A stretch of DNA of 61,447 nucleotides, counting the filler, from an uncultured virus (IMG/VR IMGVR_UViG_3300005239_002421) (Duplodnaviria > Heunggongvirae > Uroviricota > Caudoviricetes). It is 6 parts of one record of this genome, joined end to end, with 100 filler letters (N's around TTAATTAATTAA, not from the genome) between each part and the next. Parts side by side here need not be neighbours in the genome. Positions count along the whole stretch, not along the records: positions 15,409 to 20,211 come from IMGVR_UViG_3300005239_002421; 5 more parts are not named here. One strand, written 5' to 3'. Shown here piece after piece: positions 2,182 through 52,968 of the stretch (position 1 is the first letter of the stretch; every line of letters begins with the position of its first letter). The position numbers and the translations under genes were made by a program. The notes under the pieces were generated by a model. That model had not been told where the DNA came from and ran no database searches. It saw only the letters and a list, made by a program, of their open reading frames with translations.

Positions 2182-2193
2182 TTAATTAATTAA
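2182..2193. other. Assembly spacer TTAATTAATTAA (also at 15353, 20256, 32152, 57321)
   Basis: Identical six-frame-stop linker embedded in runs of about 44 N on each side. Confidence 0.95.
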
Positions 2194-2238
2194 NNNNNNN
2201 NNNNNNNNNNNNNNNNNNNNNNNNNNNNNNNNNNNNNG

Positions 2239-3081
2239 TTTCTTCAAATCCCGGAATATCCCCTTCCCAATCAGTATGCTCTGCCTGTTCTTGAATAGTG
2301 GCTCCTTCATCTTCTTTCATAGCTTTTTCAAAAAGACTTGCAGTAGTTTTAGGTTTTGTTTCTATAACTATAGGCTGATTATTATCATCTAACCTCATAG
2401 CCCCTCCTCCTTCTACCACATTATCATAAGCTATAACTTTAGCCATATTTAAGTTCTTAGGTAGTAGTTTACATAATTGTTTAAAGCAGGTTTTCTTTAG
2501 CATCCAATTCTCAGGGTCTTTGGGTGAAAACCATATAGAACCATTACCTGCCTTTGAAAGTGCTTGTATGGCTCTTAAATCATCCATATTCATAACTTTA
2601 AAGATAGGTTCTTGGTTGGAAAATCTTACTACACAATATACTGCGATTAATGCCCCTCTCTTTACTGAAGTGGGTTTATGAGATAAAGTAGGAGTTAATC
2701 CTAGTTCATATTCAAACTCATCGTTCTCATAAACACATTCACTTGTTATATTTTGAACATTAGGATTTCTATATAATAATTTACTTAATCCTTGATAACC
2801 TATTTGAAATTGACATTCATTTCCATAAGGTATTAACCAACATTCTCCCATTTGAGCAGTTGGAGATAATCCAAATTCCGCACAAGTTAAAATTGAAGAA
2901 AATACAGATGCCGGATTTTTAGTAAATACTTGAAGTAATCTTGAATTTCTTTTTATTTGATTAACCGCCATATGCATAAACTGCTGAGGGTTAATTTCTT
3001 GTTCTTCTAAACGTCTTTTATAGTTTGTAGATAATACTTACTAAGTTGACTTTCAAATTTTAATGCTATTTCTTTTGACAT
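2239..3081 (-). CDS. recT: RecT-family ssDNA annealing protein
   Basis: GLSP..GECWLIPYG..CQFQIGYQG..VYENDEF..MLKKT motifs. Likely true ATG at 3081, joined if one base is missing in a homopolymer near 3010. 3' end runs into gap. Confidence 0.9.
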
Positions 3082-6105: not shown

Positions 6106-6936
6106 TTAATCTCCTATATTTTTAGTTATATGCTTGATTGTTGTACTAAACCAAACTTCACTTACTTCAGGAACCTTTACTTTTTCTTTACAATTTTCTT
6201 TCAAAAAACATTTTGCACATCTTGAAATATTAGGGATTGCTTTAAAACCTGTTTTAAAATTGTGCATTAGGAAATTTAGACCTACTCTTATATCATTTGC
6301 GTGTTCTTCATATAACTCTTCTTCTATGTGAACTTTAATAATTTTGAAATCGTGCTGATTCGTAGTAGAGAAAACCCAAAAATAAAAGTCTAAATCTTCT
6401 CCGTGTAACTCTTTATAAAGCCATTTATAGTGTAATGCCTGAATCAATAAGGTTAATTTTGGTCTAAATTCACCTGCAAGGTGCTCTGTATTCCACCCAA
6501 AATCATTCCATTTGTCATCAAATAATGCCGTAGTTTTTAGGTCAATGATTGATTTTTTGCCATTCACTTTAGCAATAATATCAGCAGTTCCTGTTATGTT
6601 ACCCCAATTCATACTTACTCCTGACTGAATTTCAGTAACATTATAATGCTTTATAGCTTCTTTATAATTTTTAACTTGATTTAGCATTCTTTCATATGCC
6701 ACAGATAGTTTTCCGCTTTTTAAAACTTTTGGCAAAGGTACTTCAGGATGGTATGCCGGTAATGCTCCCGTACATTTATATTCAAACCAATTTCCTAAAT
6801 TCTGAGCATCAGTTGTGGGTCCTTTTGCCCCTTTGATATATAGGGCTTCAACTTTTAAACCACATTCTTTTTTTTCAGCATATTTAGTTAGTGCCTTTAA
6901 AAGAGATTGAGATATAGATAAATTATCAACTTTCAT
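6106..6936 (-). CDS. PD-(D/E)xK exonuclease (RecE/Cas4-like), probable RecT partner
   Basis: SQSLLK..LGNWFE..TGTADII..IIDLKTT..QALHY..C..C..C. Confidence 0.8.
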   Translation of the reverse strand: MKVDNLSISQSLLKALTKYAEKKECGLKVEALYIKGAKGPTTDAQNLGNWFEYKCTGALPAYHPEVPLPKVLKSGKLSVAYERMLNQVKNYKEAIKHYNVTEIQSGVSMNWGNITGTADIIAKVNGKKSIIDLKTTALFDDKWNDFGWNTEHLAGEFRPKLTLLIQALHYKWLYKELHGEDLDFYFWVFSTTNQHDFKIIKVHIEEELYEEHANDIRVGLNFLMHNFKTGFKAIPNISRCAKCFLKENCKEKVKVPEVSEVWFSTTIKHITKNIGD

Positions 6937-10633: not shown

Positions 10634-11995
10634 TTACTCTTTTTCGATTGGGAAATCGTGCTTTTTGAATAATTTTCTTGCACCTTGCTCGGTATCAAGT
10701 TGATGTTGAACAAACTCCGGTGAGGGTATAAAGAGGTTTGTTCTTTGGAATGTACTTCCAACCATATCAAACTGAGGCATTTCTTCGACCTTTTCTTTTG
10801 GGAAGCAATCATAATTAATCATCAGTTGCTTGATGTATATTAACTTTGATTTAATTTGGTCTTGCCATAAAGGATTTTTACCTGCATTGAAAGTAGATTC
10901 TGAAACTACAGACTTTCCTGATTGATTAGCAAACTCTGACTTAGATGGCTTACCATCTTTTATCCATTGTAATTTTTCACTTAAATACTTACTTCTTTTG
11001 ATTAAGAAATCACAACCATACTTATCATATCCTTTTTCTAAACTATCTACAAAGTCAGGAGTTATATAATCCTTGTTTAGTTTTGGTTTTTTTACTTTGG
11101 CAATCAAAGGAGTTGCTATATCTATATATACATAATCAAGTATCAACCTTACAGTTGTTAAAGGAAGTAAATTATATTTTATTTTCGTAAAACCATCTAG
11201 TATGTACCCTTTCCCTTTTGGTGTTATAATGTAATTTTGAGATTGATATGGGTCAATAGTCGGTGTAAGTACCTTTTGATATACTTTACCTGTAGCTAAT
11301 GTTCTATCAAATAAAAACGGCTCTAATATTTGTTCTTGATTTTCAGAAAATATTTGAAAATTCTTTATGTCATATGTTCTCTGAATTGTACTATACAAAA
11401 AGTCGTTGTAAGGGAAATTAGAAGTAGATATTACAGAAATATTGGGATTTGAAGGCAAAGTAGGTGCTGCGGCTGAGGCTGAAGGATATACTTGTATTTC
11501 GCCCCAATTTGCTGCACCGGTTTGACCACCTAATAACAAAGATTCTACTCCATAATTATATTGAGCAGTTTTAGCAATATTTTGTGCAGCTACATATGCA
11601 GGGTCTACAATAACTCTAATTACGAAACTTGAAGATTCAAGACCATAAGGTCCATCTATTGACCATTCTCCTATTACGGCAAATGGGTTAGCTGCATCAT
11701 TCAAATATAATACTAATTCATCAGTAGATAGATTTACTAATTTTGGGTCCGTAATAGAACTAACTACAAATGTACTACCATCTGCTCTATAAATTCTTAT
11801 TGCCACAGTACCATTAGAGAGTACAAGTTTAGTATTCCACCAATCACCCAAAGTATATATAGGTGACCAATTTTGTTCAAAGTTCCAAACAGTTTCCGTG
11901 CTTGTATTGGGTGCACCTAAAGATGAAGTTTCAAAAACTGAAAATTCTTGAACTTCTGTAGAATTATTTCTAAAACTAAATACCGATGCATCCAT
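10634..11995 (-). CDS. Capsid-protein paralogue (minor capsid, penton or turreted subunit candidate)
   Basis: Shares Y..FL, Q.LE, K.L.PTIDPYQ.Q and DGFT with the ORF at 40420-41169; has a large insertion. Confidence 0.6.
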   Translation of the reverse strand: MDASVFSFRNNSTEVQEFSVFETSSLGAPNTSTETVWNFEQNWSPIYTLGDWWNTKLVLSNGTVAIRIYRADGSTFVVSSITDPKLVNLSTDELVLYLNDAANPFAVIGEWSIDGPYGLESSSFVIRVIVDPAYVAAQNIAKTAQYNYGVESLLLGGQTGAANWGEIQVYPSASAAAPTLPSNPNISVISTSNFPYNDFLYSTIQRTYDIKNFQIFSENQEQILEPFLFDRTLATGKVYQKVLTPTIDPYQSQNYIITPKGKGYILDGFTKIKYNLLPLTTVRLILDYVYIDIATPLIAKVKKPKLNKDYITPDFVDSLEKGYDKYGCDFLIKRSKYLSEKLQWIKDGKPSKSEFANQSGKSVVSESTFNAGKNPLWQDQIKSKLIYIKQLMINYDCFPKEKVEEMPQFDMVGSTFQRTNLFIPSPEFVQHQLDTEQGARKLFKKHDFPIEKE

Positions 11996-13364: not shown

Positions 13365-15308
13365 TATTTTCTTCCTAAAAAGATTCCTAACAGAATACCT
13401 GCTAGTCCTCCTATTAACATTGAATTATCACCTTTTTTCTTTACTTCGCCACCTTTTGCATAACTTATTCTATCTAATCTTTTTCCTAATTCTTCTTCAT
13501 CATTTTTCCACAAATAAAACATTTCTTTGGCTAAATCTTCTACATCTTCATCTTCTGCCAACTCATCTCTATTCCAACTTACAACCTCTACTCCATCTCT
13601 ATATATAAAAAAATCTCCTAATTCTCCATCTGCTCCATCTCCATAGGGGTTTCCCTCTATTGTAATCTTACCACCTTTAGCAAAACTCCCAACATACTTA
13701 TCATCTAAATATCTAAATTTTCTTGTAATTCTATATCCGTTTTCTTTTAAGTATTTGATTTCTTTTTTGCATCTTCTAAAGAATCGAATCCTTCGTTATA
13801 TTCATCCCCCTCACTATCTACATATTCAATGTCATACGAATATCGACTATCTAAATCTCCACCTTTAGCAAATCTTCCGATTTTCAATTCTCTTCCTTCT
13901 TTATAGTTATCCCCATCAAACCATTTAGATATTTTATCAATACCTTTTTGTAGTTTTTCTTTTAAATCTTCTATACTATCAAAAGTGAATTTGTCTTGTG
14001 TGTAATCTTCCATATTTCCTGTTCTGTGATAAGGTGCTTCCATATTTACATTACCGGTAAGAACTATAGTATGCTTACCATCAATACCTCTGCTATTATC
14101 AGGATTATAGTAAAATGCTTCTACTTCAAACATAATACTATCATCATCACTTCTTGAAAACATATCTAAATCTTCTGCCTCATCCATATATCCTGCATCC
14201 TGTAAAGAAGAGTAATCAACATTTTCAATACCTCCTAATTCTTTTACTATGTCAGGATATTCTTCTTCAAATCTTTCTTTACCATATTCATAATTTAGAT
14301 TTTCTACTCTTTCTAATTCAGCATCTAAAGTATTTGTAGGTAAAGATTTTCCTGAACCTGTCAAATAGTTCCCGTATGTGAAAAAACGGTATTCATAACC
14401 TCCATCAGTAAAAGGAATAAAGCCATCTCTGCTCTCGTATTCTACTTCTTCTCCTTCTATGTCTTGACCTTCATATTCTTGATTAGCATCTTCTAATACA
14501 TCTTCTAACTCATCTTTTAATACCTCTACTATATCTTCTCTGCTTATAGCTTCTCCACCCTCTGAAAAACCTTGAGGGAATTTAGAACTATATATTTCAT
14601 CGTTATATCGAGATGCATTATCAACAACTCTTACCCAAGTATTAGAATCTTCTATTTCTCTTGCTTTTGAAATTGCTCTTTTTTTATTTGGTGCCTCATC
14701 ATCTAAATGCACTACATCGTAGTTTTCATCGAAATCATAATCATTTTCGTTGTTGTAAACTCTAATAATATATTCTTTGTTTTCATCTAAATCCCCACCT
14801 TTTTCAAAACTTCTAATCACGAAAATATCTCCATCATTAGACTTGTATTTCATTTTAGGGAAATACTTTTGTTTAGCTTCTTCAAAATTATCTCTATTCT
14901 GTCTTTCTGAATCTACAAAAATCACTTTATAATTATCTCCTGCTAATACTTTTATTTCTTCTACATCATAATCATAATCTCCTCCGGACTGCCAATCATC
15001 TCCGAACTTTTGCTTTGCTAAATCAATTAAACCGTTTTCACTAACAAAATCATCTGTTGATGTATAATTTCCACTTAAATCGTTTCCTAAACTGCCACCT
15101 TTTGCATATTTAGATAAATCGTATTCTTTTACTGTTCCTCCCTTTTTATAGTTTTGAAAATAATGTCCATCATATTCGTTGTAATTGTTTATTGATAAAT
15201 CTCTTCCCAAAGCCTCATAGTCAAAATAAAATTCAGGATTTGAAACACCTTCAATACCACCTACATTATCAACATAATTTTCTCCTAATTCGTAATCTCC
15301 ATCATATT
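13364..15308 (-). CDS. xxGG-repeat polyprotein A: ArdA-like segment, acidic modules, C-terminal TM (5' truncated; -1 shift near 13765)
   Basis: Frame open to the gap with YFDYEALGRDL; 7 [YF]xxGG motifs; -1 frame continues to LIGGLAGILLGIFLGRK. Confidence 0.75.
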
Positions 15309-15408
15309 NNNNNNNNNNNNNNNNNNNNNNNNNNNNNNNNNNNNNNNNNNNNTTAATTAATTAANNNNNNNNNNNNNNNNNNNNNNNNNNNNNNNNNNNN
15401 NNNNNNNN

Positions 15409-15730: not shown

Positions 15731-16402
15731 TTAATTCATAATTCTAACATCATATATATTCTGATTGGCGGCTATTATTCTTCTATTAACCTCATCCCAA
15801 TTTATAATTTTAAATATATTTTTGATGTATTTCGTTCTGTCTGCATCGTATTTCAAATAATATGCGTGTTCCCACACATCTATTCCTAATAAAGGATATG
15901 ATTGATACTCAGGCATATATGGGTTGTCTTGATAAGGGGTAGCTAGTATATTTGTACTACCATCTCTATTCATTACCCACCATACCCATCCTGAGCCGAA
16001 TCTTTTCTGCGATGCTTCAATAATAAATTCTTTAAATTGTCCGTAAGTACCAAAGTCTTGAATAATTTTAGCCAATGAAACACCGTGTGGTGGATTTGAC
16101 TTTTTTGATGGATTAGGTTTAAGCATTTTCCAAAACATAGAATGATTTACATAACCTCCTCCATTATCTCTAATTTCAATTGGGTATCTATCTATGTTCT
16201 GCATTACTCTAATAACCGGGTCAGTAATATCATATTTGTCTACTGCTGCGTTAAACTTTTTTAAATACCCTAAATAATGTTTATTGTAGTGTATTTGCAT
16301 AGTTTCCTCATCAATATATGGCTCTAAACCGTTATATTTATAAGGAAGCCTTACAGGAGAAAAATGTATTAAATCATAGTCATCATATTTATTCATTTTC
16401 AA
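15731..16402 (-). CDS. sodA: Fe/Mn superoxide dismutase (Mn-type signature)
   Basis: LEPYID..HYNKH..GGYVNHSMFW..FGSGW..QDNP..DVWEHAYY. Confidence 0.95.
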   Translation of the reverse strand: MKMNKYDDYDLIHFSPVRLPYKYNGLEPYIDEETMQIHYNKHYLGYLKKFNAAVDKYDITDPVIRVMQNIDRYPIEIRDNGGGYVNHSMFWKMLKPNPSKKSNPPHGVSLAKIIQDFGTYGQFKEFIIEASQKRFGSGWVWWVMNRDGSTNILATPYQDNPYMPEYQSYPLLGIDVWEHAYYLKYDADRTKYIKNIFKIINWDEVNRRIIAANQNIYDVRIMN

Positions 16403-17862: not shown

Positions 17863-18369
17863 TTATGCTCCACAAGAACCACAAGCATTACTCATATTTG
17901 AAGTTTGCCAATCAGTACCTTGTAGGTTTCCTGATGCATTACTCATATTAGAAGTTTGCCAATCAGTTCCTTGTAAATTTGCTCTTCTTGCTCCGTTTGC
18001 ATTTGAATAACCACTTCTTCCCGGCATAGCCGCTAACCAAGTAGCTTCCCAACCTGCACTTGGTTTTCTTCCCGGAATAGCTGCTAACCAATTGTTATCT
18101 CTACTAGGTATTGCTTTAACATTAGGTGGACCATAAGGAATCATATATCCTCTTCTTGCTCCTGATGCGTTTTGGAATACTCCACCATCTTGCCACATAG
18201 TTTCTCTGTTTCTACCACTTTGTTGCCAATTAGTTCCTGTGAAACTTGAAGTTGGTTCAGCACCTTCAATTGGTGGAACTGTACTTGTTTTTGGTTTAGA
18301 GAAATGCTCGTAAGCTGCATATGCTCCAAATCCTGCTAGTCCGTAAAGACCGATTTTCATTAAATCCAT
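17863..18369 (-). CDS. N-terminal TM protein with repeated NAxG motifs
   Basis: FQNASG, YSNANG, MSNASG, MSNACG; tandem NLQGTDWQTSNMSNA x2 and WLAAxPGR x2. Confidence 0.75.
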   Translation of the reverse strand: MDLMKIGLYGLAGFGAYAAYEHFSKPKTSTVPPIEGAEPTSSFTGTNWQQSGRNRETMWQDGGVFQNASGARRGYMIPYGPPNVKAIPSRDNNWLAAIPGRKPSAGWEATWLAAMPGRSGYSNANGARRANLQGTDWQTSNMSNASGNLQGTDWQTSNMSNACGSCGA

Positions 18370-19494: not shown

Positions 19495-19664
19495 AATTAT
19501 TTATTTTTAAATTTATTTTTATATATGTAAAATGCTAAACCTGCCACAAGAATTGCACCTCCTATATACATTAGATTCTTATTTCTTTTTTCAGTTTTTA
19601 CTTCTTGAGTACGAGCATCAATAACTGCCTGTTCTTCTATAGTATGTTGTTTAGCCGCCATAAT

Positions 19665-19931
19665 TTATTTTTTAAACATTCCCTTACTGTAGGCATAATA
19701 TACACCTACTCCAACAATTGCTATCCAAGCTAAGTTTGGTAAGCCCATAAATCCTGCTTTTTTTGGCTTAACATCTGCCGGAGTAGTTCCCACATTATCT
19801 CCGGGTCCTATTACTTCTGCTTCAGCTAATAATTCTTCTTTTACTTCGGCATCATCTTTTCCTGCTCCGTATAAAGCATCATTTACTTTTTTTATATATT
19901 CAGGGTCTGTCCCTTGTGCGAATCTTGACAT
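19665..19931 (-). CDS. C-terminal TM protein
   Basis: KKAGFMGLPNLAWIAIVGVGVYYAYSKGMFKK; paralogous fragment at about 20058-20211. Confidence 0.7.
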   Translation of the reverse strand: MSRFAQGTDPEYIKKVNDALYGAGKDDAEVKEELLAEAEVIGPGDNVGTTPADVKPKKAGFMGLPNLAWIAIVGVGVYYAYSKGMFKK

Positions 19932-20045: not shown

Positions 20046-20311
20046 TTTATTTATTTTTTATTTTTTAAAAACTCCTTTTGTGTAGGCATAATATACACCT
20101 GCACCAATAATTGCAACCCAAACTAAAGTCGGTAATCCCATAAATCCTGCTTTTTTTGTTTTACCATCTGCAACTTCTGTGGTAGTAGATTCTGCTGCTA
20201 CTATTTCAGTTNNNNNNNNNNNNNNNNNNNNNNNNNNNNNNNNNNNNNNNNNNNNTTAATTAATTAANNNNNNNNNNNNNNNNNNNNNNNNNNNNNNNNN
20301 NNNNNNNNNNN

Positions 20312-22054
20312 ACCACCTTTAGCGAAATCATCATCTTGCTCTCTATCTTCTTGAGCATCATAATAATCTAAAGTTTCATTATTTAAAGTATCAATCAGAA
20401 TAACATCCATTTTATATAAATATTTACTTCTTTCATTTATAAACTCATCGTATGCTTCATCATAATCATTTCCTCTCCATAAATCATTTCTGCCATCAAG
20501 AGAAACAAGATATCTTCCATCTACCATCCCACCTTTAGCATATTTATTTTTCCATTTATTATTGGCGGTTTTTATATAATCTTCCTTGATGGCTATTTCT
20601 TCAAAATTATCATCATCAACATTATATCCGTGTCGTTCAAATTTTTCTTTCAAATCTTTATCAGTATATCTAACTCTTTTATCATAAGTATATTTAGGGT
20701 CTTTTATTCTGCCGCCTTTTGCATAATCTTCTATAATTACATCATCATAACCTTTTTCTTTCCACTCTTTTGCCAATCTCTCGGCTTCTTCTTCGGTTAA
20801 TTCTTCTCTACCATCTATATCTAAAGGCATATCTCCTACCCACACAATCTTACCACCTTTTGCATAAGATTTTTCATTTACTCTTTTAAGTAAATAAGTC
20901 TGCCAATCTTTCTCATCTTTCGTAAGCATATCTCTTCTACTCTCCCTATTCCAATCCTCTCTAATCTTTCTTCTTTCATCTAAATCAATTCTATCTAAAA
21001 CATAATGAGTGAACCTTTCATAATCTCTATCAAAATCATCATAAGTTTTCATAATCTTACCACCTTTAGCGAACTCTAATTTCTCTTTTTTATAGACTTC
21101 ATATGGAAATACAAATTGAGCAGAATACAACTTCATTTCACCTTTCTTCCAAAGTTCTTTTTCTTTTTCATTAGGTGCAGAAAACTCATCCCAATCACTA
21201 CCTTTTTCGTGCTTTACAAGAGCACTTGTTTGAATAGTATCTTCATCAACATAAAAATCCTCTTCTTTCATATCTGCGTATGAAACAAAATCATTTAAAG
21301 TTTCAAATAAATCTTTTTTATTAGTAAACTTAGTTTTATATGGAAAATCATTTTCACCTAAGTAATATGAATGAAATTGGTCTTGCTCTCCCTCTTCATA
21401 AGAATCTTCATAGAAAGTAACATCAGCACCCTTTATTTGGTATGTTTTTCCTACTTCTCCACCTTCTTCAAGTAAATCCGGATTAACATATTCTTTAGCC
21501 ACCATCATCTTTACGGGTATTTGTCTTTCGACTAAACTATCAACGGCTCCTTGTTCATTATATTCATTACTCATTATATAGCCATCCATACTGCTCCAAA
21601 CTAATCCTTGATTTTCTGCCTCATCCATAAACTCATCATCGCTTAATTCATCAGCATATCTTTTAAATTGATTGTAAGTGAAGAAACCTTCATCTGCATA
21701 CATATCTGCTCTCATATCAATAGCATAAACCCTTTCCTCAATCGTACCGCCTTTAGCAAATTTTGCTTTTTGTTTCTTAGCATCTTGAACGGTTTTGTAT
21801 ATGCCTCCTAAATCTTTCTTGATGTCTTTAATAACATTCTCATTATCCTTAATAGATTTTTTTTCTCTATCAATGCCACTCTCTAAATTGTTAATTTGAT
21901 TTTCAGAACCTGTAATGTCTTTACGAATGCTTTTTATCTCTTCCCTTCCTTCATTGATTTCTTTATCGCCTTTTTTAGCAACATTACCCATAGCTTTAGC
22001 AAGTTCAATTTGACCTCCTCTTTCGTAACTATTATTTCTATTTCCTCTTTTCAT
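20312..22054 (-). CDS. xxGG-repeat polyprotein B (3' end in gap)
   Basis: 8 motifs (YERGG, FAKGG x3, LEEGG, YAKGG x3) separating acidic modules. Confidence 0.8.
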
Positions 22055-22056
22055 AA

Positions 22057-23148
22057 TTATCTTCCTATAAAAAATGCACCAAGTAAAATACCTGCTATCC
22101 CTCCTACAAGTAAAGTTTGATTATTATTATCTTCAGTATTATCAACTTTTTTTGCTTCTACTTTTTCAATTTTATCATCACATTTATCTTTAGTGATAGT
22201 TTCTTTTCTTAAAGCACCTTTTTCCTTCTTTAGTTTAGCAATTTCTTTGTCTTTTTCTCTTCTTAGCTTAACATATCTATCTCTGTCAATTTTACCTTTA
22301 ACAGAACCTCCTCTTGCATATTGTTTTTCTGTATAAAATTCTTTTATGTTATCCTTTAACCCATACTGCTCTTTAAGTTGCTCTTGACTATTTTTACCAT
22401 CATATATTATGTCGCTATTTAACATATAATTTAAATTTTCTACTTCTTTTTCTGCCTCTGCTTTAGATTTATAAAGCATATCCTTATTTGTTGCAAAGAA
22501 ATTTTTATTTTTTGTTCTTCCCTTTATCACATAACCACCTTTTACAGAGCCACCACGAGCCATTTTTCTTTTGCCTTTATCCATTGTAGATACATCTGCA
22601 TACTTTCTTCTGCCCATAGATTTTTCAGTTCCTGCACTTTCTCTCATTCTACTATCTAAAGATTGAGATTTTTTTCCTCTGTTTCTTTCTCCTATGCTTT
22701 CTCTATCTCTGTCATCATAACCTTGAGTTTTACCACCTTCCATAAACATTCTATCTCCATTATCCATAGTTTCTACACTTGAATATGCTCTACGACCTAG
22801 ATTTTTATTAGCTGCTTTGCTTTCATCTCTTCGGTCTTTTAATGTTTGTTTATAATTGCTTTCTCTTCCAAGTCTAGTTCCTAAATCTTCATTTAACTTG
22901 TCGTTATACCCTTGTGGTTTAGCGGTTTCTCCTCCTTTAGCCATCTTTTTCTTATTTGCTATTTGTTGCATATTTAAAGCAAATTGTGCTCTTTCACGAG
23001 TTCTTTCTGAAAAGTCAGTTGGATTATCTTTTACTTTTTTAGCAAAATCTTGAACGGACATACCTGCATCAGTAGCTTGTTTAGTAAACGCACCAACAGT
23101 TCCTTTTTTTTCCATTTCTTTATCTACATTTTGAATCCAATCTGCCAT
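22057..23148 (-). CDS. xxGG-repeat polyprotein C with basic modules and C-terminal TM
   Basis: MAKGG, FMEGG, MARGG, YARGG; duplicated QGY.D..RR.Y..V.TMD module; ends LLVGGIAGILLGAFFIGR. Confidence 0.8.
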   Translation of the reverse strand: MADWIQNVDKEMEKKGTVGAFTKQATDAGMSVQDFAKKVKDNPTDFSERTRERAQFALNMQQIANKKKMAKGGETAKPQGYNDKLNEDLGTRLGRESNYKQTLKDRRDESKAANKNLGRRAYSSVETMDNGDRMFMEGGKTQGYDDRDRESIGERNRGKKSQSLDSRMRESAGTEKSMGRRKYADVSTMDKGKRKMARGGSVKGGYVIKGRTKNKNFFATNKDMLYKSKAEAEKEVENLNYMLNSDIIYDGKNSQEQLKEQYGLKDNIKEFYTEKQYARGGSVKGKIDRDRYVKLRREKDKEIAKLKKEKGALRKETITKDKCDDKIEKVEAKKVDNTEDNNNQTLLVGGIAGILLGAFFIGR

Positions 23149-24605: not shown

Positions 24606-24872
24606 ACCAAATTTTCCATCAACTTTTAAACCATAACTTCCTGCATCATTTAAAAATCTTTGTAAATTTTCTACTTTTACTCCTCCGCTACCTTTTTTTA
24701 ATGGAAAGCCTCTTCCTGAAAATTTATCTACTGTTTTAATATTAGGGCTATTATTTGTTCCATTATTACTTGGTGTAATTCTAACTCTACTAGGTCTTAA
24801 TAGATAATATAGACCTACTCCTGTTCCGAGTACACCTACAACTATTAAAGTTATTTTTAAGTTTTTATTCAT
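24606..24872 (-). CDS. TM-anchored peptidoglycan-binding protein (3' in gap)
   Basis: FPLKKGSGGVKVENLQRFLN..LKVDGKFG fits PG_binding_1. Confidence 0.8.
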
Positions 24873-24877
24873 AATTA

Positions 24878-25327
24878 TTAATCGTTAAACCACATTTGGT
24901 CATTATATCCTCCAAAACCTTGTTGATTAAAATTAGAGTATGATTCTCCATCAAATCCTATACTAGTTCTTCCTCTAACGGAGCCACAACTTGCAGGGCT
25001 ATTACTATAATTACCCAAAGAACCACAGTTACCTTGAGATGTTAGTGTTGTAAAGTTTGAACCCGGCATTGGTATTCCCACACCTTGACATCCTTGTGGA
25101 TAGCAAAATCCTGTGTAGGTACAACTTCCATCATCATTATTTGCTCCCGGACTATAATTGTTTGCACTAGAATCAGTACAACCGCTAATAGTATATTCAC
25201 ACGGACAATCAACAGTTGGTGGTGGTGGTGGTGGTGGTACATTTATATTTGCTGCTGCATTAAAGAATTCATCTCTTGAAATGTAAGAGTTAAATCCATC
25301 TTGGTCGTTATTTATTAAAAAAGCCAT
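24878..25327 (-). CDS. Cys-rich GCTD-repeat protein, paralogue of 31602-32060
   Basis: GCTDSSANNYSPGANNDDGSC; ends SNFNQQGFGGYNDQMWFND. Confidence 0.75.
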   Translation of the reverse strand: MAFLINNDQDGFNSYISRDEFFNAAANINVPPPPPPPTVDCPCEYTISGCTDSSANNYSPGANNDDGSCTYTGFCYPQGCQGVGIPMPGSNFTTLTSQGNCGSLGNYSNSPASCGSVRGRTSIGFDGESYSNFNQQGFGGYNDQMWFND

Positions 25328-25345
25328 TTTTTTTTATTTTTTATA

Positions 25346-26119
25346 TTAATAATCTCCCATCATAAAGGTTCCATCAAATCCTCTACTGTAATCAACATTA
25401 ACAGGTGTATTTCCTCCTGTTGTTGGAGTAGTTGGGTTAGAACATCCGACTGTTGCATTAGGATTATAGTTATCTGCCAATGGGTCAGTACATCCTACTA
25501 TTTGAACAGGAGGATATTGACAACTTCCATCATCTGCAACTGCTAAAGAATCATAGTTTAATGCTGAAGGGTCCATACATCCTGCTATTGGCATTGGTGG
25601 TGGATTGTATGCACAAGTACCATTGTCTGATGTAGCATTATAATCAAAATTTAATGCTTGTGGGTCAGTACATCCTAATATAGGAGCAGGTGGATAAAAG
25701 CAACTTCCATCATCAAGTGTTGCTAATGGGTTATAAGTGCTTGAATTTGGGTCTACACAACCTAAAACATCAGCAGGAACTTCAGTAGATGGGTCACCAT
25801 ATTGACATAATGGAAAGCCATTTGCATCTAATATATCAGGCTCTGAATTCGCTAAAGGGTTATAAGTGATTGAATTTGGGTCCATACACCCTACTATAAT
25901 ATTTCCACTACCCGGAACAACAACTTGTCCGGAAGTTGGTAGTGGTGGTACAAATATTGGGTCATCAAGAAGTGGTGGTAACGATGGAACAGTTGGGTCG
26001 ATTGGTGGCAATGTTGGTTCGGTATTGCTTACTATAGCAACCGTTTCATCCTTTTTCTTGTTAAGAAGTAAGTAGGCAGCCACACCGATGCCTAATAATC
26101 CCAATAATTTGTTGTCCAT
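25346..26119 (-). CDS. TM-anchored protein with five GCxD..NY..A..DDGSC-type repeats
   Basis: Repeats read directly; ends RGFDGTFMMGDY. Confidence 0.8.
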   Translation of the reverse strand: MDNKLLGLLGIGVAAYLLLNKKKDETVAIVSNTEPTLPPIDPTVPSLPPLLDDPIFVPPLPTSGQVVVPGSGNIIVGCMDPNSITYNPLANSEPDILDANGFPLCQYGDPSTEVPADVLGCVDPNSSTYNPLATLDDGSCFYPPAPILGCTDPQALNFDYNATSDNGTCAYNPPPMPIAGCMDPSALNYDSLAVADDGSCQYPPVQIVGCTDPLADNYNPNATVGCSNPTTPTTGGNTPVNVDYSRGFDGTFMMGDY

Positions 26120-28087: not shown

Positions 28088-28846
28088 TTAGTCGTTATAA
28101 AATTCCGGTTTTGGTCCTGATGCTTTAATTGCCATATATCCTAATGTTGCAACAACTCCTGCCACTAAGACCCATCCAATAATTTTAGTTGTGCCATCTC
28201 CACCTAATGATGCTTGAGTAGTTGTAGTGGTTGTTCCTGCATTTACATTTGCATTAGGGTCAAATTGTGGAGCCTGTACCCCCGGTTTTGTCATATTTAC
28301 TCCTGTTGAAAACCCTTTATTTATACTATCAAATATATTACCTATTGTACTCCAAGTATTTTGTTTTCTATCATCAATTTGTGCTTGAGTTAAACAAGTA
28401 TTTCTTGAACTAGAAGTCCATCCTGCCGGTTGCTGACCTTTTGGAAATTGTTGACTGATTGGCATACCATTTTGGCAAGTATGATAAGTTCTCATACCAT
28501 CTCCACCAAAAATTCCTGATATAAATCCACCTCCACTAGAACTCTCTTCTGTAGCAGGAACTGTTCCTAAATCTACAGGAGGTAATTCACCTCCATCAAC
28601 AGTATCGTTATCTCCTCCACCAAATATTCCGCCTAAAAATCCGGGGTGATTACTCCAAGCATCATCTTGTACCTCTCCTGTAAAACTATTGTATTCAGCA
28701 GTACCATTTAATCCATCTCCTTGGTCAACAGAATTCGCTTGAGTATCAGGATTACCTCTTAATCCAAAAGGATTTGGTAAAGGATTATGAAATGTATAAT
28801 CTTGGGAATCTCCAAAGAAGTTTAAATATTTATCTTCACTTTTCAT
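28088..28846 (-). CDS. Gly-rich protein with C-terminal TM
   Basis: SFTG and WSNHPGFLGG motifs; TM near the end. Confidence 0.7.
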   Translation of the reverse strand: MKSEDKYLNFFGDSQDYTFHNPLPNPFGLRGNPDTQANSVDQGDGLNGTAEYNSFTGEVQDDAWSNHPGFLGGIFGGGDNDTVDGGELPPVDLGTVPATEESSSGGGFISGIFGGDGMRTYHTCQNGMPISQQFPKGQQPAGWTSSSRNTCLTQAQIDDRKQNTWSTIGNIFDSINKGFSTGVNMTKPGVQAPQFDPNANVNAGTTTTTTQASLGGDGTTKIIGWVLVAGVVATLGYMAIKASGPKPEFYND

Positions 28847-28854
28847 ATCTTTTT

Positions 28855-29502
28855 TTATTTTTTCATTATAAGATAGATAGCAACTGCCCCTAATACTAAT
28901 GCTATAGTTTTATCTACACACTTTTCTTCTCCTTGAATTTTAAAAGGTACTGTATATTGGTCATCTCCACATCCACTTGAAACTACCACAGGTGCCGGTT
29001 GAGGTACTACTATTACGGGCACAGGTACCGTGTCATCAATTACTTCCGGTTCAATTACGGGCTCAGGTGCAAGAACACTAACTTCTGTAGCAAAAAAGAA
29101 ACCTGTTGTTCCATCATCCCAAAGTATTTCGTATCTCTCAGGAAAAGTTTTTTGAATATTTCCTGTTACTGTACCTCTATTAATAATCATTGGTGGGCAA
29201 GGTGGAGCAAAACATTGTACTTGAACCGAAATTCCTACTCTTTGTCCTTTAACTAATCTCATTGGCTTAACTCCTCCTGTATTAGGTACAGGTGGTAGCA
29301 CATATCCTATATCATTAGCTATTTGTTCAGCAGTTGAGCCCGGAGCAGGTAATCCTGCCGCTATAGGTGCTCCTGTAGGTATAACTCCTCTATCTACGAT
29401 AAAATTTCCTCCATTATCTTGTGGACATCCCCCGTATATAGCATCACAACTAATTCCGTTAAAAGTTTCTCCTGATTGATTGAACCATAATGTATTTTCC
29501 AT
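28855..29502 (-). CDS. Cys/Pro-rich protein with C-terminal TM
   Basis: Starts MENTLWFNQSG; QCFAPPCP. Confidence 0.7.
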   Translation of the reverse strand: MENTLWFNQSGETFNGISCDAIYGGCPQDNGGNFIVDRGVIPTGAPIAAGLPAPGSTAEQIANDIGYVLPPVPNTGGVKPMRLVKGQRVGISVQVQCFAPPCPPMIINRGTVTGNIQKTFPERYEILWDDGTTGFFFATEVSVLAPEPVIEPEVIDDTVPVPVIVVPQPAPVVVSSGCGDDQYTVPFKIQGEEKCVDKTIALVLGAVAIYLIMKK

Positions 29503-29512
29503 ATTCTTTTTT

Positions 29513-30812
29513 TTAATAATCTCCTAGCATAAACTCTCCATCAAATCCTCTTGTGGGTGTAGCTATATTNNNNNNNNNNNNNNNNNNNNAAACCTCTTGT
29601 TGAGGAAGATATGTTTGTATTGTTTTTAATTTGTGTTTGTATTGGTTTAGTCGGTAACGGTGGCAATGTTGGACTCGTAGGTCTTGTCGGTCTTGTTGAA
29701 CCTTGTTCGCAACATCTTTTTAGTATATCGTATGCCTGATTATATGATAGTGTAAATCCAATACCTGCTGCATAAGTAGTAAATGTGCTTACTACATTTG
29801 GTATAGCAGTTTGTGGCTGACCGAATGCACTAGCATTTCTGAATTGTATGCAAAATTCTTCAGGTACATTTTCACAAGAATAATCGCCTGATTGGTTAGA
29901 TGGTTCACAACAAGAACAATAATCTGTTCCATTTGCTTGGTCATAGTACCAAGTTCCTGTATTTGGATTCCAACTTACAGGGAAACTTCCATTTCCGGCT
30001 CTACATCTATCACAGTAATTATTTTTACCATAGTTATAATTTGGCTGACCAATTGTTCCTCCCATTGCAAGATTTACCCAATTTGGGTCATTACAAGGGT
30101 TATCACCTGTGTTACCATCACGACAACATTTTTGTAATAAACCATATGCTTGGTCATAAGTAAGAGTAACTCCATAACCACTTGCGTAAGTAATAAATGG
30201 TATTACAGTTCCTTGCATATTAGGTGAATCTTTTCCAAATGCAAATGCTTGATTAAACTTAATGCACCATTCTTGTGTTACATATGAGCAATCAAAAGAA
30301 ATCGGGTCATCTGTAGGCTCATCTATTGGTAATTCATAACCTTTACATAAGCATCTTTCAGCTAATAAAGCCTTTGCTTGTGCGTTGTCAATATTATACA
30401 TTGATGCTACTGTAGCAGCTATTGTATTCATAGCACCGCCATTTCCTGAAATATAGGCTTGATAATATTTATCACAATATGCATCAACATTTGAATAATC
30501 ATTTACAGGAGGTACTGAAATAGAAGGTCTTACAGGTCTTACAGGTTGAGCCGTTTGACCCAATGGTATTTCACGATTATATACTTGAGGTATTGATGGT
30601 TCTATACCACCTGTACTTAAAAGCATATCTATGTAAGAAATTTTGTTTACTAGAAGTTGTTGCCATTCAGGGTATGTTCCTGCTGATGCTAATCCATTAA
30701 GTGTATTAACATTTACATTTCTTCTGTTTTGTAAAAATGAAACCCCAAACTTTTTAAATCCATCAATCATATTGTTCTGAAATATAACGGATGGTTGAAT
30801 ATCTTCGTTCAT
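29513..30812 (-). CDS. Cys-rich repeat protein
   Basis: Likely start MNEDIQ; three C..QA...LL..C(C) helical repeats; frame after the gap ends RGFDGEFMLGDY*. Confidence 0.7.
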
Positions 30813-31578: not shown

Positions 31579-31601
31579 ATCTTCTGTTTTTTCGTTAATT
31601 A

Positions 31602-32060
31602 TTAATCGTTAAACCACATTTTGTCGTTATATCCACCAAATCCTTTTTGGTTGAAATTTGAGTATGAGCCACACCCACCTGCATTATAAAATGTTCCATC
31701 AAAACCTACAGTTGGTCCTGTACTTACAGGTCCTGAAGATGCTCCTCCTAATACATTTCCGTTACAATCTACATTAGCACTAGGGTTGTAATTAAGTGCT
31801 GATGGGTCAGCACATCCTGAAACAGGTGCTATACAAGAACCATCATCTTGATTTGCGTTAGGATTATAGTTTAAGCTACCTGCGGTAGTACATCCTAATA
31901 TTGGTGCAGGTGCATATTGACAAGGGCAACTTGCACTTGCATTACCACCACCTACTGATGAATTACCAAGACCTGTTGATATAGTTCCTGCTACTCCTCC
32001 GCCTATTGCTCCTACTTGATTAAGCCAAGCATAATTTTCATTGTTTCTTAAAAAACTCAT
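31602..32060 (-). CDS. Cys-rich GCTD-repeat protein
   Basis: WLNQVG, FYNAGG; ends GFGGYNDKMWFND. Confidence 0.75.
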   Translation of the reverse strand: MSFLRNNENYAWLNQVGAIGGGVAGTISTGLGNSSVGGGNASASCPCQYAPAPILGCTTAGSLNYNPNANQDDGSCIAPVSGCADPSALNYNPSANVDCNGNVLGGASSGPVSTGPTVGFDGTFYNAGGCGSYSNFNQKGFGGYNDKMWFND

Positions 32061-32207
32061 ATTTTTTTTTTTTTATAATTATTTAATTAAAGGAAAGAGA
32101 AAGGGGANNNNNNNNNNNNNNNNNNNNNNNNNNNNNNNNNNNNNNNNNNNNTTAATTAATTAANNNNNNNNNNNNNNNNNNNNNNNNNNNNNNNNNNNNN
32201 NNNNNNN

Positions 32208-35845: not shown

Positions 35846-36115
35846 TTAATTATCCATTACACCGTTTTTGAAACGGTATGCCCCAAGTTTTAATCCTTCT
35901 ACTCCTCCAAACTTAGATTTTGTTTTACAATCTTTATTTGTGAAAATTCCATCTCCACTATCATCCATACTGTCACAACCTCTATCCCAAGTTAGTACAG
36001 GCTCATATGAATACTTATCTCCTCCTACAGTAATAACTGCATCTCCGGATTGATTAAACCAAAGTTCTGTACTATTTTGTGCTCCTGATTGATTAAACCA
36101 TAAATTGTTTTCCAT
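35846..36115 (-). CDS. Small protein with two LWFNQSG motifs
   Basis: Likely start MENNLWFNQSGAQNSTELWFNQSG. Confidence 0.65.
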   Translation of the reverse strand: MENNLWFNQSGAQNSTELWFNQSGDAVITVGGDKYSYEPVLTWDRGCDSMDDSGDGIFTNKDCKTKSKFGGVEGLKLGAYRFKNGVMDN

Positions 36116-36125
36116 TTTCTTTTTT

Positions 36126-36449
36126 TTAATAATCTCCAAACATAAAATCACTACTACCACCAAATCCAAACCACACATCTGAATTGGCTTTTGTTCCTCC
36201 ACTTGCATTTAGCATAGATGGAGTAATATTTTGATAAGGGTCAATCACACTTGTATTAACTCTTGTAGATGTATTACCTGCAACTGCATTTCCTGTTGTA
36301 ACACTATATTGTTCAGTTGGACCACCAATACCATCTCCACCAAAAATTGATGAATAATCGCATCCGCTTCCATCAGGTAAACTACATAATGGATAGCAAG
36401 GGTCATTTGTAACATATTGTCCGTTACATAACATTGTTTTGTTGCTCAT
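36126..36449 (-). CDS. Cys-rich small protein
   Basis: MLNASG; ends WFGFGGSSDFMFGDY. Confidence 0.65.
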   Translation of the reverse strand: MSNKTMLCNGQYVTNDPCYPLCSLPDGSGCDYSSIFGGDGIGGPTEQYSVTTGNAVAGNTSTRVNTSVIDPYQNITPSMLNASGGTKANSDVWFGFGGSSDFMFGDY

Positions 36450-36453
36450 AATT

Positions 36454-37143: not shown

Positions 37144-37159
37144 TTTTTATATTTTTTTA

Positions 37160-37288: not shown

Positions 37289-37304
37289 TTTTTTAATTTT
37301 TTTA

Positions 37305-37790
37305 TTACTTAGCAGCCGTACCGCCTTTTCTAATTGAATAACCAATTACAAATGCAGTTAAACCAATTCCTAAATATCCCATCAATAATTTACCTACACT
37401 CATTTGCATATTTGAACTATCTCTTCCGGAGAATCTTCTGTAAATTATTCCTGAGCCTGTTGGCAATGGTTTTACAGGTGTTCTTCTGTCCATTAGTGGC
37501 GGTAATAGTCTTTCATCACCTGCCGCATTTTGGAATACTCCACCATCTTGCCACATAGTTTCACGATTTCTTCCTGATTGTTGCCAATTAGTACCCGTAA
37601 AACTTCTAAAGTTTTGTCTTTGCCCTCTTGGACCATATCTTAATGAGCCTTGTGAAGGAACTCCTCTTGTTTTTGATATTCCTCCTCCTTCTACTCTTGC
37701 ATCGCAAGGGTCACATCCTCCTGAAGAAGTCATTTGCCCAAAACAACTTGAGCCATCTGCCAATATTCTGCTACAATTATATGCTGCCAT
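37305..37790 (-). CDS. Cys-rich N-terminus, C-terminal TM protein
   Basis: Contains a 27-aa block identical to one in the ORF at 17863. Confidence 0.7.
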   Translation of the reverse strand: MAAYNCSRILADGSSCFGQMTSSGGCDPCDARVEGGGISKTRGVPSQGSLRYGPRGQRQNFRSFTGTNWQQSGRNRETMWQDGGVFQNAAGDERLLPPLMDRRTPVKPLPTGSGIIYRRFSGRDSSNMQMSVGKLLMGYLGIGLTAFVIGYSIRKGGTAAK

Positions 37791-37808
37791 ATCTTTTAAT
37801 TTTTATTA

Positions 37809-38639
37809 TTATCTACTTGCTTTCAAATTAGGTGTACTATTCTGAGTGCAAAATTTATTTCTTTCAAAATTTGTTATAAACTGATTTAAAATGTCAAATC
37901 TTTCTTTATTTTGAGGTGTTGGAGTGTCCTTAAATGTTGTAAGGAAACTTTGATAAGCCTCTATTCTTGGATAACCAAGAGCCAAATAAATTAATAATCC
38001 ATTCAAATCTGCTTCTGTTTCATCTTCCATATTCTCATTCAAATAAAAATGAGAAAACTCGTGTAATAGAATTGCCATTCTCATTGGAACAGTAAACTTT
38101 TTATAATGTGCTTTGCTTACTTGTATAATTCCTTTTGACTGACTAATTCTTGCAGGGGTTTGTATTACCAAACCTCTTTTTGTTCTAATATCATCAAAGT
38201 AATCTATTCTAAAATTACCCTCATCTGAGATATATGTGCTTCCGTTTGGAAACTTTCCTGCACTTAATATTCCTGCGTTGTCTGAGAATTGTTGAGCAAA
38301 ATTTGCAAAATCTCTTATTTTTGGATTACTCCAATCAACACAATCCATTTTTCTTTCTAATGGTCTAGCATCTATTTTTACAACTTTAAATGATGCATCT
38401 TGACCCTTTTTCAAATTACCGTTAGCTTTATTATATACACTTATAAGTGCTTCATAAGGAGATAAAGGCATTCTAACGAAGAATCTTTGCTTACCATCAA
38501 TAGTTGCATATCTATTAGTATAATCAGTATTAGGCTTATTAATATCCTTAACTACTATCTGAATTTTTTGAGGACTATTTGTTACGACCTCTATCATAAT
38601 AGTTAACGATTTTTGCTTTGTTTTAAATAAAATATTCAT
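37809..38639 (-). CDS. Zinc metallopeptidase (HEXXH), candidate virion maturation protease
   Basis: ILLHEFSH..ETEAD zincin pattern, located in the structural module. Confidence 0.75.
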   Translation of the reverse strand: MNILFKTKQKSLTIMIEVVTNSPQKIQIVVKDINKPNTDYTNRYATIDGKQRFFVRMPLSPYEALISVYNKANGNLKKGQDASFKVVKIDARPLERKMDCVDWSNPKIRDFANFAQQFSDNAGILSAGKFPNGSTYISDEGNFRIDYFDDIRTKRGLVIQTPARISQSKGIIQVSKAHYKKFTVPMRMAILLHEFSHFYLNENMEDETEADLNGLLIYLALGYPRIEAYQSFLTTFKDTPTPQNKERFDILNQFITNFERNKFCTQNSTPNLKASR

Positions 38640-40419: not shown

Positions 40420-41169
40420 TTAACCCTGTAATGCACGAGCAACTCCTTGACCAAGAACAATCTTGTCTTGTCTTACAACATTTGGATTACCATAACCACG
40501 AGCAATTGAATTGCCTGTTAGAGCACGACCTTGAGAAACAGTTTCAGATGGGAACAAGTAGACTTTTAAAGTCGCTTTTGCTGCAATACTGTTAACTGTT
40601 AATGTAGTAAAGCCATCCCACTTATAGGTATGCTTTAATACAGTAATGTCTGTTTGGTTTTGGTAAGGGTCAATTGTAGGAACAAGAGTTTTTTGTTGTT
40701 GATTACCATTAGAGTCAACTACTTTTACTACGATAGTTTCTAGGACCTGTGTTGAGCCTCCATCACTTTGTAGGTAAGTTAATCCAACCACGAATGGTTT
40801 AGATGAACTTTGCCATAAAAATTCAAGATAAGTTACACCTGAAATAGCCATATTATATAGGATATTTGCCGTGTTACCTGCTTCACCTGCCGGAATACCT
40901 CCACCTGCTGCGATTGCGGTTACCTTAGTTATCGTGTTATATGCTCCACCAATTTCAACAGATGCTACATCTGCTGCCGTAGAGTTATATAATGAGATAA
41001 TGTAAGGTTGTGATGAACTAGCATCAGCCGAACCCATTGCGTTTAAGTATTCTTCTTCAGAACCACCAAAGTCAAAAGCATCATCCCAATCATTTACACC
41101 ATTAGCTGACATAAATTCGTTTGAAATGTTTTCTTCTGCATCAGAGAAATAACGGTTTAAATTTTCCAT
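40420..41169 (-). CDS. Putative major capsid protein (single beta-sandwich/jelly-roll-like) with acidic N-terminal propeptide
   Basis: Beta-rich; high-expression-type codons (GCT, CGT, AAC); own promoter and terminator; near the packaging ATPase; has a paralogue. Fold is inferred, not computed. Confidence 0.6.
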   Translation of the reverse strand: MENLNRYFSDAEENISNEFMSANGVNDWDDAFDFGGSEEEYLNAMGSADASSSQPYIISLYNSTAADVASVEIGGAYNTITKVTAIAAGGGIPAGEAGNTANILYNMAISGVTYLEFLWQSSSKPFVVGLTYLQSDGGSTQVLETIVVKVVDSNGNQQQKTLVPTIDPYQNQTDITVLKHTYKWDGFTTLTVNSIAAKATLKVYLFPSETVSQGRALTGNSIARGYGNPNVVRQDKIVLGQGVARALQG

Positions 41170-43451: not shown

Positions 43452-44270
43452 TTATGTTAGGAAATATTGCTGCCTTATTCTACCCCTAACTTGTCTAATA
43501 GCTTCATCTCTATCAATTTTAGAGCCATCACTTAAACTTTTTTTATTAATAGCAGGTTTTACTACGGAATTAAAATTTTTAGATAAGTATTCATCTATTC
43601 CATTATTTATAATTGCTTCAGACATTTTTCCTTTTAATTTTTCTTCATCTAAATCTACATACATAAAATATCTAGGATTATCATTAAAATACTGTGTGTT
43701 TACTATGTTTTCAGCTATACTAAACATTTCGTATTTATCAGGAAATTTATTTCTATGTCTTTCAATACTATCTGAGTTTTTATGAAACCTCAACCAATTA
43801 GCATTTTGCCATACTTTAGTTGTTATTCTTCCAATACTCTGAAAATGCATAATAATATCTAAGTCTGTGTGTCTGTTGGAGCAAATAGCACCTACAATAT
43901 CTGTTGGAAGATGGTCACCTACATACTTATTAATGTCCTCAATCAATAACATACCCCCTCTAAAATAGTGTAGTATATCCCATAATTGATTTGCTATTTC
44001 TTTTAAAGTAAGTCTTATTCCTGTCTGCTCATTAAAAGGTCTTACCCTTCTTATTTCTGCGGTAGGCATAACAGAAAATCTTACTAAATCTTTCATAGAT
44101 ATAGCTTTATAATCTACAAACTCATCATTAACATCTAAAATTAATACTCTACGAGGAAGAACCCCTTTTGATGGATTTCCATAAACATAGGATTCAATAA
44201 GTATTTTAGTTTGATAGGTTTTACCAATCCCTTTTTTTCCTACTGCCATTCCTAGCTTTGGTTCTCTCAT
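43452..44270 (-). CDS. FtsK/HerA-superfamily genome-packaging ATPase (A32/P9-like)
   Basis: Walker A GKKGIGKT, ILDVNDEF, Walker B LLIEDI, arginine-finger region NRHTDLDIIMHFQS..VWQNA; 272 aa, no nuclease domain. Confidence 0.8.
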   Translation of the reverse strand: MREPKLGMAVGKKGIGKTYQTKILIESYVYGNPSKGVLPRRVLILDVNDEFVDYKAISMKDLVRFSVMPTAEIRRVRPFNEQTGIRLTLKEIANQLWDILHYFRGGMLLIEDINKYVGDHLPTDIVGAICSNRHTDLDIIMHFQSIGRITTKVWQNANWLRFHKNSDSIERHRNKFPDKYEMFSIAENIVNTQYFNDNPRYFMYVDLDEEKLKGKMSEAIINNGIDEYLSKNFNSVVKPAINKKSLSDGSKIDRDEAIRQVRGRIRQQYFLT

Positions 44271-52965: not shown

Positions 52966-52968
52966 AAC

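Follow-up and report, generated by a model that had tools for sequence, protein, structure and literature searches.

A motif-bounded peptide cassette in two otherwise unrelated genes of an uncultured bacterial virus: selection, probable short-tract exchange and a candidate maturation protease

How can two proteins that are otherwise unrelated carry the same peptide of 27 residues, and what keeps the two copies alike? The question was raised by two genes, A and B, of an uncultured virus. They were analyzed in a window of 61,447 nt, which is the whole stretch of DNA considered here and consists of parts of one genome record joined by artificial spacers. The genes and the shared peptide are located as follows.

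17863..18369, minus strand: gene A, 168 aa, with an N-terminal segment, a cassette array and a C-terminal CxxC
18166..18246, minus strand: gene A copy of the shared 27-aa peptide (residues 42-68), consisting of two tandem [G/E]TxWQ units, from translation
37305..37790, minus strand: gene B, 161 aa, with a Cys-rich N-terminus and a C-terminal hydrophobic helix (peak 1.76)
37524..37604, minus strand: the 27-aa shared peptide in gene B (residues 63-89), from translation and BLASTP

Minus-strand translation of both regions (18166-18246 and 37524-37604) gave the identical 27 aa, SFTGTNWQQSGRNRETMWQDGGVFQNA. Nine of the 27 codons (12 nt) differed between the copies, all nine synonymously and none non-synonymously. 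BLASTP of the whole protein A against the whole protein B returned one block only (29/32 identical), all other segments having E>=0.45, and the proteins are thus otherwise unrelated. Translation and BLASTP therefore confirmed what an earlier note on this DNA had reported, a 27-aa identity in two unrelated proteins with 9 synonymous and 0 non-synonymous changes. The AGT/TCA (Ser) and AGA/CGT (Arg) switches it had listed were both present, at Ser10 and Arg14. The same A/B pair was recovered by a repeat finder as 87 nt of 85% identity (D11). A degenerate pattern for the 3' half of the peptide hit exactly two sites in the window and none in 100 shuffles, and a profile from 44 distinct units matched only ORFs A and B within the window. 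If point changes were neutral (44 of the 230 possible ones are synonymous), nine synonymous changes out of nine would have P ~3e-7, a rough value because the peptide boundaries were picked by identity. The 9 to 0 ratio supports the claim of the note that selection acts on the peptide.

The window contains N/TTAATTAA spacers, and two of them lie between genes A and B. An assembly artefact was ruled out by three observations. Contig L001 runs without interruption through gene A and its neighbours, across the spacers on either side, at 97-100% identity, so that the gene order around A is real. Protein B was found on five contigs of up to 90 kb. In contigs from four runs covering the B region, A-type flanks appeared next to B-type contigs, as loose ends bordering the shared block. 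L001 also indicated that 1-2 kb of real sequence is missing from the window at two spacers. The artificial N/TTAATTAATTAA spacers are found at 2138-2237, 15309-15408, 20212-20311, 32108-32207 and 57277-57376.

Homologue searches detected 67 A homologues among 127 candidates and 32 B homologues among 89. With cluster members, 113 proteins were classified, namely 72 complete A, 28 B, 6 hybrids and 7 partial proteins. The A proteins displayed a constant N-terminal segment, then a variable string of short units and then an invariant C-terminal CxxC. TxWQ occurred two to seven times per protein among the 72 A proteins, with a spacing of mostly 10-13 residues; protein A of the window has four such units, and distant members consisted almost entirely of TxWQ-type units. 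The 27-mer corresponds to one two-TxWQ unit plus its boundaries. The N-terminal segment of the window protein is moderately hydrophobic, its peak of 1.16 being under the hydropathy cut-off used (1.5). The CxxC of gene A (17866-17883) overlaps the last copy of the boundary motif described below; speculatively, it could serve in metal binding, in a disulfide or in an action on the zinc peptidase. On contigs L030 (4512-5838) and L031 (2471-3791), gene A is present as two consecutive ORFs, the second of which has GCxDP repeats, as in the window at 24878-26119 and 31602-32060.

Variability or absence of the peptide in close relatives had been named in the note as what would speak against it, and this was found in part. 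Positions 10, 17, 20 and 25 vary among homologues, and the peptide is therefore conserved yet not invariant. The unit was present in 71 of the 72 complete A proteins, ungapped and 29 residues long in 61 of them. It was also present in 23 of the 28 B proteins, a set biased toward unit carriers because the queries contained the peptide. The five B proteins without it comprised one truncated and four complete proteins (4/27 complete B), and three of these four carried other A cassettes instead. Protein A carries the unit as a repeat and protein B only once, which makes A to B the likely direction of transfer. In the B variants inspected (P0057 compared with P0058 and P0069), cassette gains and losses ran from motif to motif, and a contig from run X10 skipped 105 nt of B between two motifs. 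Some tandem repeats within A lacked a bounding motif.

Other short duplications between putative virion genes were detected in the window at 84-88% DNA identity, D7, D14 and D18 among them, which shows that cassette sharing is a habit of this genome and not a one-off event. The segments duplicated include a leader at the N-terminus that ends in the motif, a tail common to two C-termini and a WSNHPG motif.

29469-29536 and 36082-36149: further short duplication
24863-24943 and 31587-31667: further short duplication
28632-28664 and 36872-36904: further short duplication
19664-19778 and 20057-20171: further short duplication

Hybrid genes were observed at L009 475-1026 and L010 169-672 and as P0016, P0018, P0019, P0020, P0025 and P0263. 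Four have an A N-terminus with a B C-terminus and two the reverse, all on contigs of 1.2-4.1 kb. Those with an A start and a B end had the upstream gene flank of A and the downstream gene flank of B, and reciprocal pairs occurred at two crossover points. They may have arisen by genuine recombination or by chimeric assembly and carried no weight as evidence.

Three other candidate features were rejected. A Pfam Pentapeptide repeat match (PF00805) on A residues 129-153 was considered spurious (17.4 bits vs a curated cut-off of 20.2), and it was further discounted for appearing in only 5 of 38 members and outside the shared peptide. A conserved RNA structure of the peptide DNA was dismissed, as the folds of the copies differed and copy A gave z 0.08 and copy B z -2.94; the RNA of the B copy (37518-37608) was more stable than shuffles (1/200) and that of the A copy was not. 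A promoter or terminator role near gene A was not retained either, with 9 promoter-like sites vs 8.0 expected.

The codon switches had led the note to conclude that the duplication is old. As stated this was not supported and is half right only, for the AGT/TCA difference segregates within gene A itself: the gene-A alleles at Ser10 are TCA in L002 and L003, and AGT in the window, L001 and L004. The differences between A and B were also unevenly distributed, with seven in codons 1-14 and none in codons 15-25 (Fisher P 0.008). This leaves an identical tract in the two genes, located as follows.

18170..18204, minus strand: 35-nt identical tract in gene A, candidate gene-conversion tract, equal to 37528-37562
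37528..37562, minus strand: partner 35-nt identical tract in gene B, equal to 18170-18204

Within this tract the A orthologues of L003 and L004 differed from window A. Over codons 15-27, window A differed from window B by 2 nt, from L003 A by 7 nt and from L004 A by 10 nt. Gene A of L002 equalled window B over 44 nt, with no nucleotide difference in codons 15-27, and run X3 contained a 44-nt contig common to both copies; all DNA comparisons of B rest on one full B DNA sequence. The peptide segment is a synonymous hot spot among the A orthologues. Compared with window A, synonymous codons were found at 10/27 positions in L003, 6/27 in L002 and 5/27 in L004, and the corresponding changes in seven neighbouring genes were 48/1341, 56/1341 and 59/1341.

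At the protein level, six A/B pairs assigned to the same contig were compared. Their peptide distances summed to 2, where permutations averaged 10.3 and 4 of 720 did as well; the pairs are related genomes and phylogenetically non-independent, and they comprise the window and five pairs matched by equal size of the longest contig, not by DNA. A seventh candidate pair (P0031/P0069) was left out, its B having no unit. The D/E state at position 20 tracked the A partner even where the B flanks did not. Thus, the window copies were more alike than orthologues over the tract, synonymous sites included (one B DNA), and lineage-specific variants were shared by both copies (six pairs, protein level, inferred pairing), both of which are expected of gene conversion. 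Against each of 10 A copies, codons 1-14 of window B showed 6-9 synonymous and 0-1 non-synonymous differences, and the B-specific codons ACG and CGT were absent from all aligned A copies. The unconverted 5' half of B therefore has synonymous codons of its own, with amino acids unchanged between window A and B, which argues for selection on the copy of B as well. Taken together, the pattern points to purifying selection combined with recurrent short-tract exchange as what would be the simplest account of the likeness of A and B.

The window also encodes candidate enzymes for such exchange.

2186..2977, minus strand: RecT single-strand annealing protein (E 5.7e-37), with its 3' end in an N spacer
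6106..6936, minus strand: PD-(D/E)XK exonuclease, presumed RecE-like partner

Rad52-like phage recombinases act on short, diverged homology, and the minimal pairing segment of Red-beta is 23-27 bp (PMC3945230). Since recombinases of this kind act on such homology, RecT is by analogy the likely agent of cassette exchange.

Both ends of the peptide matched a six-residue motif, aromatic-x-N/S-A/F-x-G, or in a broader form of the unit ends aromatic-x-[N/S/R/E]-[A/F/M]-x-G. In gene A its copies are located at aa 41-45, 65-70, 121-126, 142-147 and 159-164, and in gene B at aa 61-66, 86-91 and 117-122. The peptide is flanked on both sides by a consensus also seen in other putative virion precursors, with the reservation that the N-terminal boundary of A, SSFTG, has no aromatic P6 residue. 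The motif was found where one cassette adjoins the next, where short N-terminal leaders end and immediately ahead of the folded capsid domain, and it also occurred as 7-residue minimal repeats (GYSNANG) and in several copies per leader.

An independent set of proteins, not involved in defining the motif, was provided by the leaders of 115 capsid-like proteins (the window protein and 114 of 150 listed relatives, fragments and atypical rows being left out). Aromatic-x-x-A-x-G occurred 107 times in these leaders against 13.6 in shuffled sequences (maximum 23 in 300 shuffles), an about 8-fold enrichment, and 71 of the 115 proteins carried it in the leader. In the folded part it occurred 29 times vs 20.7 in shuffles. 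The motif logos of capsid leaders and of A/B agreed (P6 F/Y, P4 N/S, P3 A/F, P1 G). A stricter motif was found 16 times vs 0.86 expected in the 47 window ORFs at 16.8-41.2 kb, from which it was defined post hoc, and three times vs 0.56 expected in the 54 other window ORFs. The proposal of the note that candidate processing motifs bound the peptide therefore stands, in that the ends coincide with a recurring motif enriched in capsid-like leaders. If cleavage takes place after the Gly of both motifs, the following products are predicted.

18160..18234, minus strand: putative 25-aa core from A (residues 46-70), monoisotopic mass 2853.26, on the assumption of cuts after the Gly of both motifs
37518..37592, minus strand: putative 25-aa core from B (residues 67-91), monoisotopic mass 2837.27, on the same assumption

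A different repeat was noticed in long acidic proteins (13747-15210, 20264-23148 and 51350-56741), in which variable domains are separated by more than 20 copies of [YFM]-[AE]-[KE]-G-G. These repeats might be another motif for processing, or a linker; a search of the literature returned nothing relevant.

A candidate for the enzyme lies directly upstream of gene B.

37809..38639, minus strand: HEXXH zinc peptidase candidate, 276 aa, with an N-terminal beta-sandwich and an M48/SprT-like domain

Homologues of this protein accounted for 1661 of 1870 candidates. H193, E194, H197, E207 and E209 were invariant in 93 of 93 aligned sequences (the window protein and 92 of 120 listed). Weak Pfam matches among these 93 members were to SprT in 14 and to M48 in eight, and residues 124-261 could be superposed on BepA, an M48 peptidase, with Z 7.9, an rmsd of 5.0 and 122 aligned residues. 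The window protein alone gave no Foldseek match with E<=0.001 and no Pfam match, and a sequence comparison with solved structures returned no relative, only rows at E 0.28. From its sequence, the HEXXH gene is a candidate maturation protease with intact catalytic residues.

What kind of virus carries these genes? All long ORFs of the window are on one strand. The window encodes an Amidase_3, a CHAP-type hydrolase, RecT, the PD-(D/E)XK exonuclease, a RusA-like resolvase and a helicase, which together identify a bacterial virus. A CarboxypepD_reg-like protein presumably suggests a host in the Bacteroidota, an association that we take to be weak. Hydrophobic stretches were found in 33 of the 47 ORFs at 16.8-41.2 kb vs 9 of the 54 elsewhere. 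Two genes were considered as candidates for capsid and packaging functions.

40420..41169, minus strand: single-jelly-roll capsid-like protein, with a low-confidence acidic leader (aa 18-45) and the motifs FMSANG and YLNAMG
43452..44270, minus strand: P-loop ATPase, candidate packaging ATPase, with a weak HerA/DUF87 match

The capsid-like ORF had 379 relatives among 50%-identity representatives. It was modelled as one beta-sandwich (pLDDT 83), with residues 18-45 of the leader at low confidence. Its best fold match had Z 6.4 (AlgX), none reached 8, and no PDB match with E<=0.001 was returned by Foldseek. Capsid jelly rolls scored Z 5.2-6.0, those of PR772, FLiP and phiCjT23 reaching 5.2-5.8, and did not rank above non-viral rows; 'capsid' and 'tailless' are therefore labels that we infer, and the virus is probably tailless. 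The ATPase matched DUF87/HerA at E 9e-4, under the cut-off, and more weakly resembled a terminase-family P-loop (E 2e-4). In the 73 ORFs of the window compared with PHROGs, no portal or major-head family was found, and one CHAP-domain match is filed under tail lysozyme. Contigs with the genes of relatives reach 90-105 kb, the window being part of a genome. The capsid-like protein has a paralogue of 453 aa at 10634-11995 (hhalign probability 97.6% over 101 columns), which evolves fast between strains and is possibly a vertex protein. A conserved Fe/Mn superoxide dismutase (15731-16402) adjoins the structural block, and a PAP2-family protein is encoded at 49148-50116.

The gene-B region was detected in 20 of the 24 runs listed (13 studies). 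Most were marine, one was a viral metagenome and six were RNA runs. Positions 36400-38700 of the window also occurred in oligo-dT RNA libraries (X17, X19) and metatranscriptomes, occurrence in an RNA run not being equivalent to transcription. Where tested, A and B had no relatives in viral_contigs or in the phage collection, no Pfam match above the cut-off and none in PHROGs or PDB sequences. The sole genome_contigs match (L042) was a chance one on the opposite strand of an archaeal gene, and the Atlas search returned only clusters without names. The literature within the search, outside which most subscription papers and supplements lay, held no description of the peptide, the motif or the virus group.

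These observations can be combined in one mechanism, a docking cassette of membrane-associated precursors that is cut at both ends during maturation. A and B would be membrane-associated modular virion precursors, A being made of a short membrane-associated segment and motif-bounded units. The TxWQ pair would be the ancestral repeat unit of A, and B would have acquired one unit from it. Short tracts of ~35-45 nt would be exchanged between the genes, probably through RecT and the exonuclease, such that variants appear in both copies, each of which would remain under purifying selection. During assembly, the Trp-Gln units may attach A and B to the inner face of the shell, at a site that recurs there, or to another high-copy virion protein. 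The neighbouring zinc peptidase would then cut after the motif Gly, as for the leader of the capsid protein, and the cutting would free the 25-residue core from its membrane anchor. Cassette structure, selection, within-genome tracking and motif enrichment are read from the sequences themselves, and from these we infer the virion location, the recombinase responsible, the cleavage, the cut position and the binding partner. We hold the sequence-level half (cassette, selection, conversion) to be highly probable and the cleavage half to be somewhat favoured, and give the mechanism as a whole an even chance. Co-folding of three capsid candidates (49-249) with A residues 38-72 scored 0.00, was run without controls and was counted neither for nor against binding.

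The cleavage half is the one challenged by an explanation in which the flanking motif and the TxWQ pair are never cut. The peptide would then stay in place as an arm that binds the capsid or the membrane, and the substrate of the peptidase would be a different one. Minimal GYSNANG repeats and several motifs per leader would suit multivalent binding, paired Trp-Gln units 10-13 residues apart resemble repeated anchors, and the cutting that we propose is itself deduced from sequence. However, the placement of the motif between cassettes and at leader ends resembles that of the protease sites in SPN3US head proteins (PMC10052503), and a strongly conserved HEXXH gene is located within the same block. 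Docking without cutting is therefore possible, though on the unlikely side. The function in B is questioned by another explanation, according to which the unit works in A only and its copy in B is a tolerated insertion kept alike by conversion alone. The complete B proteins that lack the unit (4/27), three of them with other A cassettes instead, are in agreement with a passenger of this kind, as are the several other short duplications between virion genes (D7, D14, D18). It is difficult to reconcile with codons 1-14 of B, whose 6-9 synonymous and 0-1 non-synonymous differences from the A copies, together with its B-specific ACG and CGT, suggest that the unconverted half drifted silently with the protein unchanged; we consider a passenger improbable.

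The exchange itself would be superfluous if one old duplication had been kept identical by selection alone, both copies co-adapting to one partner. Nine synonymous and no non-synonymous changes would fit such a history, and a common binding partner could drive joint change of both copies. But selection on the protein explains neither the 35-44 nt of synonymous identity between paralogues, at which orthologues from strains diverged by ~4% differ, nor the polymorphic AGT/TCA codon, and this explanation appears very improbable. A reading that goes beyond our mechanism treats A and B as peptide-precursor polyproteins of a neuropeptide- or RiPP-like kind, from which the viral zincin would yield small peptides that stay in the particle. 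These might serve as shell glue, as a protease cofactor or as a membrane-entry peptide, drawn from a cassette pool shuffled and homogenised by the virus' own recombinase, and the virus would belong to a large, apparently undescribed lineage of single-jelly-roll bacterial viruses. We hold this polyprotein reading to be rather unlikely and offer it tentatively.

Adenain, the protease of adenoviruses, is a cysteine protease. Several features of the preferred mechanism, a docking cassette released by cutting, have a parallel in its substrates. Adenovirus pVI, pVII and pre-mu (protein X) are processed by adenain at a short Gly-ending consensus, M/L-X-G-G. Two cuts yield mu as a middle piece of 19 aa, and the peptides cleaved from pVI and from pVII are competitors for a common site on hexon (PMC7998265). 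The likeness consists of one viral protease acting on several virion precursors and of peptides from two proteins binding one site, as proposed here for A and B. By contrast, adenoviruses are eukaryotic and double-jelly-roll, whereas here the host is bacterial and the capsid candidate a single jelly roll. The enzyme is an HEXXH zincin candidate, its site would be aromatic-x-N/S-A/F-x-G and not M/L-X-G-G, and a single cassette, passed from gene to gene, supplies both peptides. The adenovirus precursors and A/B showed no relationship in sequence, nor was one expected.

The prohead proteases of SPN3US, phiKZ and T4 cut A-X-E sites in many head proteins, several per propeptide (PMC10052503). These systems resemble the present case in the short site common to many proteins, in its recurrence within a propeptide and in the role of propeptides, which direct proteins into the particle. 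Those are tailed phages, and in the same text their propeptides are mostly cleared and not conserved, whereas here the piece between the sites is the most conserved part of the protein. Rad52-like phage mosaicism (Red-beta, RecT) likewise involves short diverged segments exchanged within genes, and RecT is encoded in the window. That process is an exchange between phage and prophage genomes (PMC3945230), whereas here two genes ~20 kb apart in one genome have one peptide homogenised. The Odin group and other prokaryotic double-jelly-roll viruses share with this virus a jelly-roll capsid (a candidate here) and an uncultured marine origin. Odin genomes, however, are 7-11 kb without a packaging ATPase (PMC5894146), whereas the 61-kb window has an ATPase candidate. 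Membership of the Odin group was rejected on these grounds of genome size and ATPase, contigs of relatives reaching 105 kb. By analogy, the peptide would work like known protease-bounded virion peptides, and it stands outside those families.

What this locus adds is an architecture of cassettes, a candidate metalloprotease and a peptide that evolves in concert in two genes far apart. If our reading holds, it would provide a precise handle on an abundant uncultured lineage (379 capsid-like clusters at 50% identity), because the mass of the peptide, the site of cutting and the enzyme are all specified as predictions that could be tested without culturing the virus. It would also show clearly that one peptide cassette can evolve in concert in phage genes that are unlinked, and adenovirus-style maturation, with its released internal peptides, would extend to a bacterial tailless virus with a metalloprotease.
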